DNA of 64,000 nt from an uncultured delta proteobacterium (GTDB lineage: Bacteria; Desulfobacterota; Binatia; UBA9968): contig CAWDPO010000015.1 in assembly GCA_963804165.1 (NCBI GenBank), positions 1 through 64,000 of the forward strand, in the 5' to 3' direction. Shown here piece by piece: positions 25,536 through 32,020 of the stretch (position 1 is the stretch's first letter; each line of letters begins with the position of its first letter). The translations under genes and the position numbers were made by a program. The notes beneath the pieces were generated by a model. The model saw nothing but the letters and a program-made list of their open reading frames with translations, ran no database searches and was not told the DNA's origin.

Positions 25536-26034
25536 TGGCTTATCCTCGAACGTTGTTCCGTGCGGGCGATGCAGAGTTCCTAGGTCGCGTTGGGCAGCAG
25601 AGCTAAGGCTAGTTCAAACATACCCGATACGATGCCTATATATCGCGTCATAAACACTGCGTTCGAAACAGTCAACGTTTAGCATCAGCCAATCGGCATT
25701 TCTAGCGATTGTTATCAGCAAGTGGTGTATGGCGCGTTCGCTCTCAACATTGCGCTATTAGCCTATCGGAGAAATTGCATCTGGCGATTGAAGCGTCGTA
25801 CAGTTCAATCCTGCGGAAGTTTGCGATGGTCTGGCCGAAATAGGCCGCCGATCGTTAGGTAAATAAGCTGCCGTGCCGGTCGGCTTTTTAACGAAAAACT
25901 CTACGTTGACAATCCAGGTGGCTGATGGATATTCCACGCAATTTGAACTTTTATTGTCCAAGGTGTCGCGAGATAAGCCGACCAGTAATTGTCGCTCTCT
26001 ACGGCGGCTCACTTAATAGTTAGGCGGCAACCCG

Positions 26035-26538
26035 ATGTCTACCGGGTTAGAAATCCAAGCTCAAATTGACGCGGAGAATGTCAAAGGCCTCTTGTTGATT
26101 AATGGCGGCGCAGCGGTTGCTTTGTTGGCGGCCCTTCCCCATGTCGTTGACAAACCCGGCTTTGAATCGCTGACTCGTTCAATTCTCTGGAGCCTTTTAG
26201 TGTTTCAAATTGGGCTTGTATTATCAGTAGTACACAACCGACTTCGTCGTATCTGCTCCCTGGAGTACGAACGACACAATTATAGGCCACCGCCTTGTGA
26301 ACGGTTTGGATTACGATTGCGCGAGCCCTGCGTTTGCCACGCCAGTATTCTCTGTATGTGGCTAGCTCTTATAGCCTTTGTTGGTGGTGGCGTAACCGTA
26401 TTCTGGGGTGGTCTGAAGTCCTTGGACGAACGAGCAGCGATAGTTAGGGCCACGAAGGCGGCGACACTGCAGGTTCCGAAAATAGAGCCTAACACCACTG
26501 CGGAGAGGGACCCCGCGAAGCGACGCGCCACTCCGTGA
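26035..26538 (+). CDS. Cassette 1: hypothetical membrane protein
   Basis: LLINGGAAVALLA TM; starts 10 bp after GTTAGGC; reads into its attC. Confidence 0.75.
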   Translation: MSTGLEIQAQIDAENVKGLLLINGGAAVALLAALPHVVDKPGFESLTRSILWSLLVFQIGLVLSVVHNRLRRICSLEYERHNYRPPPCERFGLRLREPCVCHASILCMWLALIAFVGGGVTVFWGGLKSLDERAAIVRATKAATLQVPKIEPNTTAERDPAKRRATP

Positions 26539-26547
26539 ACATTAAAC
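26487..26547 (+). other. attC site (degenerate R': ATTAAAC)
   Basis: GCCTAAC (complements GTTAGGC at 26019); CGGAG...CTCCG arms. Confidence 0.6.
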
Positions 26548-26565
26548 AGTATCGATGACTGAAGT

Positions 26566-27021
26566 ATGACAAGAAGTCGATTGCTACGATTGATCGTGTT
26601 TGTCCCACTTTCCTTTTGGGGTCTAGACACAAACGCTCGCGCAGACACAGCATGGCTGCTTTGGCACCACACCTACACGACCAGGGCACCCAAAGAAGTT
26701 AAGGCAGCAGACTACGAGCGATGGGTGATACAGAACGATTGGGTGATTCTGAACGCCGTTGAAACTCGGGGCGAGTGTCTTTCTTCGCTGCGTGAGGAAT
26801 TTTCTAGAAAACGCGAGTCGATGATTGCCGATGATCCGGGAGGAAAAGTAAACCAGAACCTTTTAGCCGTTGGGGTTAGCGCTTCGCTTTGGAGTGGGCG
26901 AAATATCAAGTTTGGACAACCGAGTACAGAGATGCATCTCGGCCAGGAACATCATTTTTGGTGTCTACCAACGGGCGTTGATCCTAGAACTACTCGGATA
27001 AACTTAATGCCGCAACGGTAA
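26566..27021 (+). CDS. Cassette 2: hypothetical secreted protein
   Basis: Signal peptide, AWLLW motif, C-terminal CLPTGVDPR. Confidence 0.7.
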   Translation: MTRSRLLRLIVFVPLSFWGLDTNARADTAWLLWHHTYTTRAPKEVKAADYERWVIQNDWVILNAVETRGECLSSLREEFSRKRESMIADDPGGKVNQNLLAVGVSASLWSGRNIKFGQPSTEMHLGQEHHFWCLPTGVDPRTTRINLMPQR

Positions 27022-27145
27022 AAAACCATGCTCGGCGCGGCGCATGGTGCACTCGTCGCTCGGTAGCCATGCTGTTACCCGAGCATCGGTCAGACGCCGC
27101 GCAACACATTAGGTTCGTGGGACTTATGCAAAGATTGACTAAAGC

Positions 27146-27226
27146 GCCTAACATTCGGCTTGAAACAGATCTTCGGACCCGCTCGCTTCGCTCGCTAGCC
27201 TCGTCCGTTCAGCCTTTGCGTTAGCC
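27146..27226 (+). other. attC site
   Basis: GCCTAAC...GGCTTGAA...TTCAGCC...GTTAGCC; near copy of 29838..29919. Confidence 0.88.
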
Positions 27227-27242
27227 CGCTTCAGGAGCACTA

Positions 27243-27798
27243 ATGCGACCCCTTCGGTATTCCATCAACGTCACATTGGACGGGTGCTGCGATCATCGTG
27301 CAATCGTCGCGGACGAAGAGTTGCATCGTCACGCGGCCGAGAACCTCAACCGGGCCGATGCCCTCCTTTTGGCCGGGTGACCTATGAAATGATGGAGGCA
27401 GCGTGTCGCCGCCGGCGCGGACGGGAGAGATGCCCGATTGGAGCCCCTGGATGGAACCATTCGCTCGGACGATCGACGCGAAGAAGAAGTACGTCGTGTC
27501 GAGAACCCTTGACCGGGTCGATTGGAACGCAGAGCTCTTGCGCGGGGATCTGGGGAAGGCCGTTCAGCAGCTCAAGCGGGTATCGGGTAAGGGACTGTTC
27601 GTGGGAGGCGTGAAGCTCCCTCTTGCGTTGGCGGAGCTGGGGTTGATCGACGAGTACGAGTTCGTGGTGCACCCCAGGCTAGCAGGCCATGGGCCGACGT
27701 TGTTCGCAGGCCTATCGAAGTATGTCGACTTGAAGCTTGTGAGTTGGCTGGAGTTCGGCTCGGGCGCGGTGGCGATGCGGTATGAGCCGAGAAGGTAG
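27243..27798 (+). CDS. Cassette 3: dihydrofolate reductase-like (RibD C-terminal) protein, frameshifted
   Basis: MRPLRYSINVTLDGCCDH..., KKYVVSRTL, GLIDEYEFVVHPRLAGHGPTLF. Confidence 0.88.
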
Positions 27799-29919: not shown

Positions 29920-29932
29920 CGAGGAGAGAGAT

Positions 29933-30757
29933 ATGGCCGAAATCAGCATCGAGGGACGGCGCGTCTCCTACTTCGAGTGCGGATCGGGCGCACCCGTTGT
30001 CTTGCTGCATGCTGGCGCGGGCTCCGGAAAGCAATGGCTGAAGACCGCCCGGCTACTTGAGGCGCGGTTTCAAGTGATCGTACCTGATCTCTGGGGGTTC
30101 GGAGGTACCGAGAAGTGGTCCGGAGAACACGAGCTGACACACGATGACCAGGCGCTCCTTGTTGTTGGTGTTATTGAGCATCTCTGCAAGGAACCGGTCC
30201 ACATTGTCGGACACTCCTACGGAGGCGCGACGGCCGTACGGGTCATACTCCAGAAAAGGGAGCTCGTGCGGACCGCGGTTCTCATCGAGCCAATCTTGAC
30301 ACCCTTGCTCGCGCTTGCGGGCGAAGAGAACCACTTTCGCGAGTACTTCGACATGGCCCAGGGATTCTTGGGAGATGTCGCCGCTGGAAAGTTGGACGAG
30401 GGATGGCGAGGCTTCCTTGACTATCGCAACGGCCCGGGCACTTGGGAAGCATTGTCCGAAGCGCCGAGGGAGCGCTTTCGGGAGGCCACAGAGAGCACCG
30501 TAGCTGCCTTTCGATCGAACCTAAATAATCCCACTTCGATTAAAGACCTTGAGCAGCTATCGCTTCCGACGCTCGTGATGTGTGGCGAGAAAACGACTGT
30601 TCCGGACCGACGACTGACAGAGATTCTTCGAGACTATATTCCGCAGTGCCGATATGAAATCATTCCAGGCGCAGAGCACATGTCACCGCTCAGTCACCCT
30701 GCATTCATCGCTGAGGCCGTCGAGCGTCACATCAATGTTGGGACCGTTCAGCCGTAA
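29933..30757 (+). CDS. Cassette 6: alpha/beta hydrolase
   Basis: PDLWGFG, GHSYGG nucleophile elbow, GAEHMSP. Confidence 0.9.
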   Translation: MAEISIEGRRVSYFECGSGAPVVLLHAGAGSGKQWLKTARLLEARFQVIVPDLWGFGGTEKWSGEHELTHDDQALLVVGVIEHLCKEPVHIVGHSYGGATAVRVILQKRELVRTAVLIEPILTPLLALAGEENHFREYFDMAQGFLGDVAAGKLDEGWRGFLDYRNGPGTWEALSEAPRERFREATESTVAAFRSNLNNPTSIKDLEQLSLPTLVMCGEKTTVPDRRLTEILRDYIPQCRYEIIPGAEHMSPLSHPAFIAEAVERHINVGTVQP

Positions 30758-30776
30758 AGGGGAGCCCCGAGTTCTT

Positions 30777-30834
30777 GGCTAACAAGGGCATAGAGCCGAC
30801 CGCAGGAGCGTGCGGCTGAAGCCGGGCGTTAGAC
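30777..30834 (+). other. attC site (short, 58 bp)
   Basis: GGCTAAC...AGCCG..CGCA..TGCGGCT...GTTAGAC. Confidence 0.8.
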
Positions 30835-30879
30835 CCGCGATCCAGGAACCGCCAAGATAACCAAAGTTAAGCGCCCCCG

Positions 30880-31908
30880 ATGTCTCACTCTCGTCTTGCT
30901 TTGATAGTGGTGGCTCTTCTGGGCTTTGTCCAGTGCGCTTTGAGCGGTCCGCAGGACGCAACCGCTCGGGATCAACAACCGGCTCGTCTGCAGGCCGAAT
31001 TTGATCGTTTGGCGGAAACTGTAGGCGGCACTGTAGGCGTCGGCGTCCTGCACATCGAAACTGACCGAGAGATCTATCTCAATCGTACCGTGCGGTTTCC
31101 AATGGGCAGCATCTTCAAGATTCCGCTTGCAGTTCAACTCCTGGCGCTTGTGGACCAGGGGGCGGTTGCCCTGGACAAGACCATCGTCCTTCAACCGAGC
31201 GACCTTCGTCCGGGTAGCAGCAAGCTGGCGAAGGCTTTTGGCGAGCCTCGGAACATATCCCTTCGCCAGCTTCTCGAGACGATGCTTATTGACAGCGACA
31301 ACAGCGCGACTGACATCCTATGGAAAGAAGCCGGAGGGTCTGAGGCTGTCATGGCCCGCCTTGCAGCGCTTGCAATCCAGGGAATGTCGGTAAACCGCCC
31401 AACGGCCCTGCTGCTGGCCGCCGCTGCAGGACTGGGGCCACTTCCGCCGGGCACTGAATTGACCCCAGCGCGATTTCAGGAACTCGTCCGGAAAGTCCCG
31501 CGGACGAAGCGAACCGCCGAAATGGCCGAGTTCTTCAAGGACGACCGTGACACGGCAACACCGGAAGCCTTGGTTGTTTTTCTCTCGAAGATTTGGCGTC
31601 AAGAAGCACTAAGCCCCACCCAGACCGCGCTCCTGATCGACATCATGAATCGATGCGATACCGGCAAGGGACGGCTCAGAGGGAGGTTGCCACTGTGGAC
31701 AAAGGTAGCCCACAAGACAGGCACGCTACGTCCCAGCGTTACGAATGACGCCGGAATCATTTCGCTACCAGGCGGCACGGGACACGTCGCCGTTGCAGTG
31801 CTGATCAAGGAGTCTGCAAAGGACCTCGCAACCCAGGAGCGCGCGATTGCTGAAATTGCGCGGGCGATCTACGACCATTTCGTAAGCGGTCCGGGGCGCG
31901 CCAACTGA
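30880..31908 (+). CDS. Cassette 7: class A beta-lactamase-like protein
   Basis: Signal peptide, FPMGSIFK (SxxK), SDN, DDRDT, HKTGT. Confidence 0.9.
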   Translation: MSHSRLALIVVALLGFVQCALSGPQDATARDQQPARLQAEFDRLAETVGGTVGVGVLHIETDREIYLNRTVRFPMGSIFKIPLAVQLLALVDQGAVALDKTIVLQPSDLRPGSSKLAKAFGEPRNISLRQLLETMLIDSDNSATDILWKEAGGSEAVMARLAALAIQGMSVNRPTALLLAAAAGLGPLPPGTELTPARFQELVRKVPRTKRTAEMAEFFKDDRDTATPEALVVFLSKIWRQEALSPTQTALLIDIMNRCDTGKGRLRGRLPLWTKVAHKTGTLRPSVTNDAGIISLPGGTGHVAVAVLIKESAKDLATQERAIAEIARAIYDHFVSGPGRAN

Positions 31909-31934
31909 ATGCCACACTACAATCGTAAGCTGCA

Positions 31935-32020
31935 GTCTAACTTCAGGTAGTGCGGACGGGCGGCAGCGTTCGTGCATCATGGCGCACCGTGCTCGTCTGC
32001 CGCACACCACGACGTTAAAA
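31935..32020 (+). other. attC site (last in array)
   Basis: GTCTAAC (complements GTTAGAC at 30828); GTGCGGACGGGC...GCTCGTCTGCCGCAC; GTTAAAA. Confidence 0.82.

Follow-up and report, generated by a model that had tools for sequence, protein, structure and literature searches.

Near the middle of the 64,000-nucleotide (nt) stretch of DNA analyzed here, referred to as the window (contig C15, positions 1 to 64000), the respiratory genes sdh-napC are followed by an attI-type element, six gene cassettes, the error-prone polymerase gene dnaE2, and an insertion sequence (IS). The source genome, that of an uncultured delta proteobacterium, is a draft in 46 contigs, 80.9% complete and with 5% contamination. 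The comparison set comprised 90 genomes of the same family (designated G), taken from a species-representative collection. The region from 25783 to 32020 is very probably an integron without its integrase, made of an attI-type site, an outward promoter and six co-oriented cassettes, and would be the dnaE2-side half of an operon-embedded integron that has been split in this genome. An earlier note on this DNA, made from the sequence alone, had described 26019-32020 as an array of cassettes lacking an integrase.

The attC sites that close the cassettes lie, from R'' to R' on the top strand, at 27146-27226 (site A), 27820-27912 (B), 29201-29309 (C), 29838-29919 (D), 30777-30834 (E), and 31935-32020 (F). 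On the top strand each is an imperfect palindrome with a ..YAAC heptamer at its start and a GTT.... heptamer at its end, and the bottom strand of all six, folded as single-stranded DNA, is closed by the R''/R' boxes. The R'' of site C (GCTTGAC) has one mismatch in AAC. The sites are spaced by 0.6 to 1.4 kb (the criterion being less than 4 kb), and all their bottom strands are on the - strand. Rfam holds no attC family, and its scan of the window returned 0 families; detection relied on self-derived covariance models (R1, R2, and R3) specific to this attC family. R3 was trained on 25 sites from four relatives only, 24 of them on the array strand and 3' of a true intI, the integron integrase gene. 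In an unfiltered search of both strands of the 64 kb, the top six matches of R3 were exactly sites A to F, with E values from 1e-12 to 9e-3 (A, 66.4 bits and 6e-12; B, 2e-8; C, 1e-4; D, 1e-12; E, 9e-3; F, 6e-3). The next-best match (E = 0.1) lay on the mirror strand of B, and the remainder had E values above 1.7. Fold energies were clearly better than those of shuffled sequences for B (z = -5.2), C (z = -3.3), and D (z = -2.9), and marginally better for E (z = -2.1). Sites A and D share 90% identity over 70 nt, and attC sites of this type recur at 88 to 97% identity in the arrays of G014 and G015, 3' of integrases that pass our threshold for IntI (at least 265 bits with TIGR02249, covering the IntI-specific segment).

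The RNAalifold consensus of the six sites consists of an outer R stem, an internal loop, an inner L stem, and two bulges on the 3' arm. In an alignment of 21 sites (A2), 87.4% of the cells pair and 12 of the 17 pairs show a compensatory change, a level that none of 500 shuffles reached; slid controls pair in 29 to 44% of the cells. The AAC/GTT pairs are invariant, and all nine L-stem pairs covary, with changes on both sides. A2 was fitted to the covariance model, and its pairing statistics therefore favor the structure. We nevertheless considered that the hairpins might be ordinary intergenic palindromes, such as repetitive extragenic palindrome-like repeats or terminators, in a fixed operon. 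Such an origin would suit the two sites that fold no better than shuffles, as well as the outcome of a naive scan for R boxes and folds: its strict form recovered only site B, and its relaxed form gave 73 candidates in the window versus 35 to 46 in shuffles, so that these loose criteria were judged unspecific and the scanner was dropped for the covariance models. Ordinary palindromes would fit poorly with AAC/GTT boxes that are conserved and L stems that covary, with a model exclusive to these six sites in 64 kb, with the same site family 3' of true intI genes in relatives, and with the absence of the cassette genes from this locus in relatives. Only one terminator-like site in the region overlaps an attC (29221-29238, inside site C). 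We give this explanation hardly any credence; the six attC-type sites are real. The earlier note had counted seven, of which these six stand. The seventh, the GCCTAAC at 26487-26493 (+), lies within an open reading frame (ORF; 26035-26538), has no R' GTT partner and no closing stem (z = -0.63), and was matched by none of the three covariance models. This leaves two ORFs in the first cassette and makes six attC sites plus one attI-type junction in all.

Every sizeable ORF between 26019 and 32020 is on the + strand, as are the six cassettes. Cassette 1 (26020-27220, ending with site A) contains the ORF at 26035-26538 (167 amino acids [aa], hydrophobic) and another at 26566-27021 (151 aa, N-terminal signal-like), neither with a match in Pfam, NCBIfam, or PADLOC; two flanking ORFs had no PADLOC match either. 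Cassette 2 (27221-27906, ending with B) carries a RibD_C-family gene at 27244-27798, with PF01872 matching its 3' part. The RibD/DHFR-like protein announced by the earlier note is thus a RibD_C-family one, encoded by a gene that is read in three frames because of two 1-nt shifts (27369-27420 region). This gene has a G+C content of 0.63 against about 0.52 nearby, and an excess of some 10 points over its neighbors fits a foreign origin. A megablast search of 25780-32030 against 72,556 plasmids retrieved a single record, the megaplasmid NZ_CP007129.1 of Gemmatirosa kalamazoonensis, for the RibD_C gene only (27243-27790, 79.7% identity). In the same plasmid set, neither cassettes nor platform were shared with plasmid-borne mobile integrons of classes 1 to 5, and nothing in these comparisons links the array with clinical integrons. 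Cassette 3 (27907-29303, ending with C) encodes an AI-2E family transporter (28018-29166; PF01594, 109 bits), cassette 4 (29304-29913, ending with D) a GNAT acetyltransferase (29316-29843; PF00583, 66 bits) for which no NCBIfam model reached its cut-off, and cassette 5 (29914-30828, ending with E) an alpha/beta-hydrolase (29933-30757; PF00561, 94 bits).

Cassette 6 (30829-32014, ending with F) encodes a class A beta-lactamase-family protein (30880-31908), which scores 208.7 bits with NF033103 (cut-off, 200). The nearest solved structure is that of LRA-5 (8eo5), an enzyme from a soil metagenome, and in the alignment with LRA-5 the S-x-x-K, S-D-N, and K-T-G motifs can be read as SIFK, SDN, and KTG. 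Residues 170 to 222, in the omega-loop region, are unalignable to LRA-5 (about 53 residues versus about 15, or some 38 aa longer), and the alignment offers no equivalent of Glu166. This is the sole cargo gene with any link to resistance, and none of 89 family genomes has a homologue at an E value of 1e-40 or below. The cargo assigned in the earlier note (AI-2E, GNAT, hydrolase, beta-lactamase, and two genes without a family) was recovered in these searches, as were two features that it had seen at the cassette ends. The stop codon of the GNAT gene (TAA, 29841-29843) lies inside the R'' box (ACCTAAC) of site D, and the ends of cassettes 1 (GTTAGGC/GCCTAAC) and 6 (GTTAGAC/GTCTAAC) are perfectly complementary (7/7), which fits their insertion as circles; the 5' boundary of cassette 6 matches its own R'' at 7 of 7 positions versus 4 of 7 for its in-array partner. 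The note had also named two outcomes that would speak against an array, an attC model without hits and a gene order fixed in relatives: R3 ranks the six sites first, and upstream of dnaE2 the loci of 11 relatives encode none of the seven cassette proteins. By sequence comparison the cargo is accessory. In G014, a stretch of 1.1 kb in cassette position (C15 of that genome, L043, 4752-5858, followed by an attC match at 5861-5948) is 96.8% identical to C2:249859-250966 of the source genome, where the counterpart is a 337-aa ORF; this identity is far above the roughly 80% of dnaE2, and the stretch may therefore be a shared mobile cassette.

The array is headed by an attI-type element of about 240 nt (25783-26021, + strand; nhmmer profile match, C15:25783-26057), which carries two GATAAGCCG direct repeats plus a hairpin followed by a T run and ends at the G|TT of GTTAGGC (26019-26025). 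Six aligned copies are homologous up to ...TCACTTAATA|GTT, and homology is lost right after G|TT. A control fold indicated that GTTAGGC at 26019 is not an attC tail. The profile matches directly 3' of a true intI at 5 of 20 intI loci (L022, L023, L027, L037, and L039) and in G018 (L010). By its sequence context, the predicted attI-type element has its crossover point in the GTTAGGC at 26019. The left end of the array is not a bare core site, and the earlier note missed the conserved element and its predicted promoter. The latter is a Pc-like site at 25906-25933 (+ strand; TTGACA-16 nt-GATATT) inside the element, pointing into the cassettes; it agrees with the consensus at 10 of 12 positions, is the sole promoter-like site on the + strand in 25500-32300, and both of its hexamers are conserved among the aligned attI-type copies.

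The strongest support for the attI reading is given by the congener G018. The napC-attI locus also exists on its contig C14, where it is 96.9% identical through GTTAGGC and is then followed by a different, single cassette. This cassette carries a gene of the Na/Ca-exchanger family with its own attC (GCCTAAC...GTTACCG), in place of the six of the window. The difference between the two loci fits the footprint that integrase-mediated cassette exchange at attI would be expected to leave. G061 has the napC locus without an attI-type element.

Further copies or fragments of the element, at least 10, are scattered over the source genome (C9:6451-6728, C41:60977-61242, C24:175627-175912, C23:259322-259545, C43:355230-355456, C10:50934-51178, three places on C17, and C12, C26, C21, and C30). 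They are only about 80% identical to each other, and most end with ...CACTTAATA, followed by a GTT-type heptamer and then by unrelated sequence. At C23, C10, and C24, attC-model matches lie 0.9 to 2.4 kb 3' of the copies on the right strand, so these would be single-cassette units without an integrase.

No integrase accompanies the array. C15:1-64000 contains no TIGR02249 match, no tblastn match to the IntI of four relatives at E values of up to 10, and no tyrosine recombinase, and tblastn revealed no intI stump upstream of the attI of the window. Across the whole genome, tblastn with the four IntI gave a sole match, 30 aa of the C terminus at 83% identity (C34:24302-24391), and the 30 weak TIGR02249 matches reached at best 104.9 bits versus the 265 required, without model positions 182-245. 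These weak matches are accessory integrases of IS91-family elements of 2.5 kb, each composed of a Y2_Tnp/Zn_Tnp_IS91 transposase and an accessory tyrosine recombinase (C41:58483-61015, C9:5016-6668, and others on C5, C10, C18, C23 [two], C30, C37, and C41). The XerC-like recombinases near the attI copies on C9, C41, and C23 were considered as alternative cassette recombinases and rejected: they belong to these IS91-family elements as accessory integrases, and most of the elements, which number 8 copies or more, have no attI next to them. The IS91 copies on C9 and C41 begin exactly at an attI-type G|TT junction, and the two match each other at 96.6% identity over IS plus attI. In complex class 1 integrons, too, IS91-like elements (ISCR) are associated with integrons, and the abutting elements on C9 and C41 recall this arrangement; here, nothing indicates that the IS moved attI or cassettes, and the window contains no such element. 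There is thus no intact intI in the assembled draft genome, and its only trace is the 30-codon remnant on C34.

With six attC sites on one strand and no intI nearby, the locus meets the definition of a CALIN, an attC cluster without an integron integrase (Cury et al. 2016, PMC4889954), as far as its sequence tells, while keeping attI and promoter. The CALIN label of the earlier note thus applies, as does its statement that no tyrosine recombinase flanks the array, and the genome-wide search for intI that it proposed ended at the stump on C34. Its view of the array as a reservoir of mobilizable stress and resistance cassettes is at present conjecture, given that the assembled genome offers no integrase and that a link to resistance is limited to the beta-lactamase-family gene. 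The same paper places half of the CALINs in genomes that encode an IntI. The integron could still be active, with an intact intI in the unassembled fraction of about 19% or on another replicon serving attI and attC in trans. This would suit a draft of 80.9% completeness in 46 contigs, congeners with up to three intI genes over the cut-off (e.g., G005 and G014), the many attI-type copies with conserved junctions, and the intact attI and predicted promoter of the window. It would not suit the fact that 0 of the 30 TIGR02249 matches exceed the cut-off, nor that the sole intI locus that can be placed by synteny, that of C34, is cut to 30 codons by a clean deletion. We consider an active system unlikely, although it is the strongest of the rivals. 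We favor a platform that lost only its integrase, which is what the attI-type element with its promoter at the left end of the array implies.

The relatives indicate where this platform belongs. An intI above the cut-off is present in 33 of the 90 family genomes, and in five congeners, G005 (unpublished), G006, G014, G015, and G018, the dnaE2 orthologue is found 1.7 to 48 kb downstream of it, on the same contig and strand. In relatives, intI, attI, and cassettes are co-oriented. At 11 of 20 intI loci, from 8 genera, a lexA, imuB, 23S-IVP, or HigA-like gene is found co-oriented at most 1.5 kb upstream of intI; one of the other loci has DUF5131 upstream, and 8 have none of these genes (3 of those 8 have less than 900 nt of flank). 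The congener G008 (L019) has lexA-IVP-imuA-imuB-higA directly followed by dnaE2, that is, an empty site. Of the 62 named public imuB loci compared, 9 have IntI after imuB, with titles of Candidatus Binatia, "uncultured delta proteobacterium," and Candidatus Eisenbacteria and with ImuB 57 to 85% identical to that of the source genome. The closest named ImuB relatives are metagenome-assembled genomes (MAGs) of "Candidatus Binatia" and "uncultured delta proteobacterium." In 34 of the 62 loci, dnaE2 follows imuB within 2 kb, and all of these have ImuB that are at most 64% identical. The named loci come from the same collection as the G genomes and are therefore not independent of them. In this family, as judged from gene order, the integron lies co-oriented inside the SOS mutagenesis operon. 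The earlier note overlooked this context: the array makes up, by the same comparison, half of an integron that in this family is embedded in the lexA-imuA-imuB-dnaE2 operon. Full-text searches of the literature (supplements were outside their reach) turned up no published placement of an integron within or beside imuA-imuB-dnaE2.

Several relatives show variants of this layout. G018 and G014 have a second integron position, between lexA and imuA. In G018 (contig C6, L010, 1-13511) the order is lexA, intI, a weak attI, about four cassettes, imuA, imuB, IVP, higA, a strong attI (5021-5300), cassettes, and dnaE2, so there are two arrays in one operon, the second without its own integrase, like that of the window. 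G014 has two intI genes at these two array positions. At a named MAG locus (L087, 451-5410), imuB and dnaE2 are followed by an IntI-like fragment (48% identical, 150 aa). In G015 (contig C4, L009, 1235-1990, minus strand), a two-gene toxin-antitoxin-like cassette with a short attC (GCCTAAC...GTTAGGC) is flanked on both sides by a copy of the dnaE2 leader. Since the first 51 dnaE2 codons (92% identical) are part of the upstream copy, the cassette insertion goes along with a duplicated dnaE2 5' end; G003 (L011) has a similar extra 5' fragment. R1 and R2 gave no attC in the 18 kb adjoining dnaE2 of G015, G006, and G014. The attC-bounded toxin-antitoxin cassette of G015, seen by eye, escaped them as well, and these two models thus miss short divergent attC sites.

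In the source genome the operon is in two parts. A whole-genome search found lexA, imuA, and imuB only on C34 and dnaE2 only on C15, and the adjacent, co-oriented lexA-imuA-imuB-dnaE2 operon is not present. C34:18354-42260 (L044 and L045) carries lexA, IVP, imuA, imuB, IVP, HigA-like, TcmP-like, and split DUF5131 genes, the intI stump, and an array. There, intI has been cut to 30 codons by a clean deletion downstream of imuB-higA-DUF5131. It is followed by a different attI region, homologous to that of G014, and then by about 18 kb of cassettes, with + strand ORFs and attC-model matches, whose right end abuts genes like those on contig C19 of G018. C34 has no attI-type-1 element, and no reciprocal product of an attI x attI exchange was found. 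On C15, dnaE2 (32216-35363, + strand; NF004225, 1209 bits) follows the last cassette. With the 1031-aa DnaE2 of a relative as query, tblastn aligned the whole protein (residues 1-1031), split over two frames and with a TGA inside, and the reading-frame breaks lie near 34.9-35.0 kb and at about 35186. Truncation of dnaE2 by the IS was rejected, since its full-length DNA runs to 35363, short of the IS gene, whose start is at 35490.

The comparison with G018 raises the question of whether C15 was misjoined at the repeated attI element, so that napC-attI and cassettes-dnaE2 come from different places or from different strains of the bin. The element has at least 10 copies, contamination of the bin is 5%, DNA identity to G018 goes from 96.9% up to the junction to about 77% for dnaE2, and the two parts are on separate contigs of G018 (C14 and C6). 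The copies of the element are, at about 80% identity, too divergent to confuse an assembler, and identity to G018 declines within the left flank itself (97, 93, 82, and 72%), so that mixed divergence is not limited to the junction. A wrong join would in any case leave the six cassettes, with their attC sites, as an integrase-less array next to dnaE2. We regard a misjoin as quite improbable, between the palindrome and active-integron explanations. The sdh-napC-attI segment looks, from its identity profile, like one recently exchanged between lineages. In the window, 9470-26025 aligns with contig C14 of G018 (L051/L052), with identity falling stepwise away from the attI junction (96.9, 92.8, 81.6, and 72.5%). 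Elsewhere in the window, identity to G018 is 72 to 86%, and the right flank corresponds to another contig of that genome.

Several points weigh against the integrase-less reading. In a draft that is 80.9% complete, an intact intI could be unassembled. Identity to G018 is 97% on the left side of the junction but about 77% on its right side, which leaves room for a chimeric join at a repeated element. The attI is identified, at the sequence level, by position and breakpoints; 15 of the 20 intI loci are without this type of attI element, and at least 10 attI-type copies in a genome without any IntI are unusual for an attI. As for the attC sites, the fold energies of A and F are no better than those of shuffles (z = -0.55 and -0.72), the R3 E values of E and F are only marginal (about 0.01), and the R3 training sites from relatives were chosen by a model that had been exposed to the sites of the window. 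Finally, single-base frame shifts break RibD_C (27369-27420), the 3' end of dnaE2 (34880-35190), and DUF5131 on C34 (L044, 9765), at least one of them in a short T run. The assembly may have introduced these indels, in which case the genes would not be decayed; the low completeness of the draft would fit this.

On the left of the array, outside the element, lies a core gene for a NapC/NirT-type tetrahaem cytochrome (24933-25535, - strand; PF03264, 43 bits), whose product is 98% identical to its counterpart on contig C14 of G018. On its right, 127 nt 3' of dnaE2, is the IS transposase gene (35490-36737, + strand; DUF772 and DDE_Tnp_1 in Pfam). A MITE-like repeat of about 210 nt has more than 12 copies in the source genome, at 70 to 87% identity, and is also found in G006 (L014, 12298-12514 and 14608-14840). 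In soil DNA sequencing, 14 runs from 7 studies each contained 0.34 to 0.35 of the sampled words, and in RNA sequencing 6 runs contained 0.07 to 0.13 of them; these figures reflect word sharing only.

CALINs, the co-oriented intI, and the control of intI by SOS through a LexA box are already in print. SOS (LexA)-controlled integron integrases were reportedly described by Guerin et al. in 2009. In the LexA-controlled systems of Cambray et al. (2011; PMC3108266), a LexA box lies in the intI promoter. Expression of the integrase would likewise be tied to the DNA damage response in the family studied here; the difference is that the link would be positional, with intI inside a lexA-headed operon. 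The origin of CALINs by loss of the integrase or by splitting of arrays has also been described (PMC4889954), and the locus resembles those of that report in having at least two attC on one strand and no intI nearby, cassettes mostly unlike clinical ones, an adjacent IS, and a likely origin by splitting or decay. It differs from them in keeping an attI-type site and a predicted promoter at its head and in having its intI stump on another contig rather than within 10 kb. Chromosomal integrons of the Treponema denticola type, in which intI is transcribed towards attI, form a clade that includes Blastopirellula, Kuenenia, Chlorobium, and Synechococcus (PMC3607928). The relatives of the source genome share with them the common direction of intI, attI, and cassettes. 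The integrons described there are free-standing, whereas here the unit lies between imuB and dnaE2 in a Binatia-like lineage; this comparison is one of gene layout. The array itself is ordinary and, taken alone, one more CALIN and no news; its operon-embedded context is unusual. What is added here is the operon-embedded layout, its spread across a family, the empty site, and the integrase-less derivative.

We propose that the array derives from the layout typical of the family, in which intI, attI, and cassettes run in the same direction within the lexA-imuA-imuB-dnaE2 SOS mutagenesis operon. The bottom strand of each attC would fold into a hairpin of the kind recognized by integron integrases, and IntI would have inserted the cassettes one by one, as circles, at the G|TT of attI, from whose predicted promoter they could be read as a single transcript. 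In the source genome this unit would have been split, with lexA-imuA-imuB, the intI stump, and an 18-kb array on C34 and a second attI, the six cassettes, and dnaE2 beside unrelated respiratory genes; the cassettes would now be mobile only with an IntI supplied from elsewhere. The sites, their resemblance to those of intI-linked arrays, the lack of intI, the layout in relatives, and the turnover of cassettes at this attI are observed, whereas transcription from the promoter, the action of IntI at the attI of the window, and the manner of the split are steps that we infer.

A more far-reaching proposal, which we put forward tentatively and hold to be possible but less likely than its opposite, is that the integron is a built-in part of the operon, with lexA-imuA-imuB-intI-attI-cassettes-dnaE2 forming one LexA-controlled transcript. 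The window would then be a frozen end state after the loss of intI, and the attI-promoter module would have spread, as spare landing pads, to 10 or more places, with a single cassette in at least three. If this were true, DNA damage would induce the expression and shuffling of cassettes at the same time as error-prone synthesis, the amount of DnaE2 made would be governed by array length, and the attI, promoter, and six cassettes of the window would act as a fixed leader operon for dnaE2.

The locus offers a rare candidate attI sequence for a nonproteobacterial integron and, in the window and contig C14 of G018, a natural before-and-after pair for the replacement of cassettes at the exact crossover point. 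Its beta-lactamase-family cassette, a putative class A member by its sequence, adds to soil arrays as a source of resistance-type genes. Across this family of uncultured soil bacteria, one co-oriented string of genes brings together two classic routes to genetic novelty under stress: the ImuA-ImuB-DnaE2 mutasome as a source of point mutations and the integron as a means of capturing and shuffling genes. A relative with the empty site and several decayed forms can serve for comparison. Should this string be transcribed as a single unit, the idea that integrons provide SOS-controlled variation on demand would be directly testable in a natural system.

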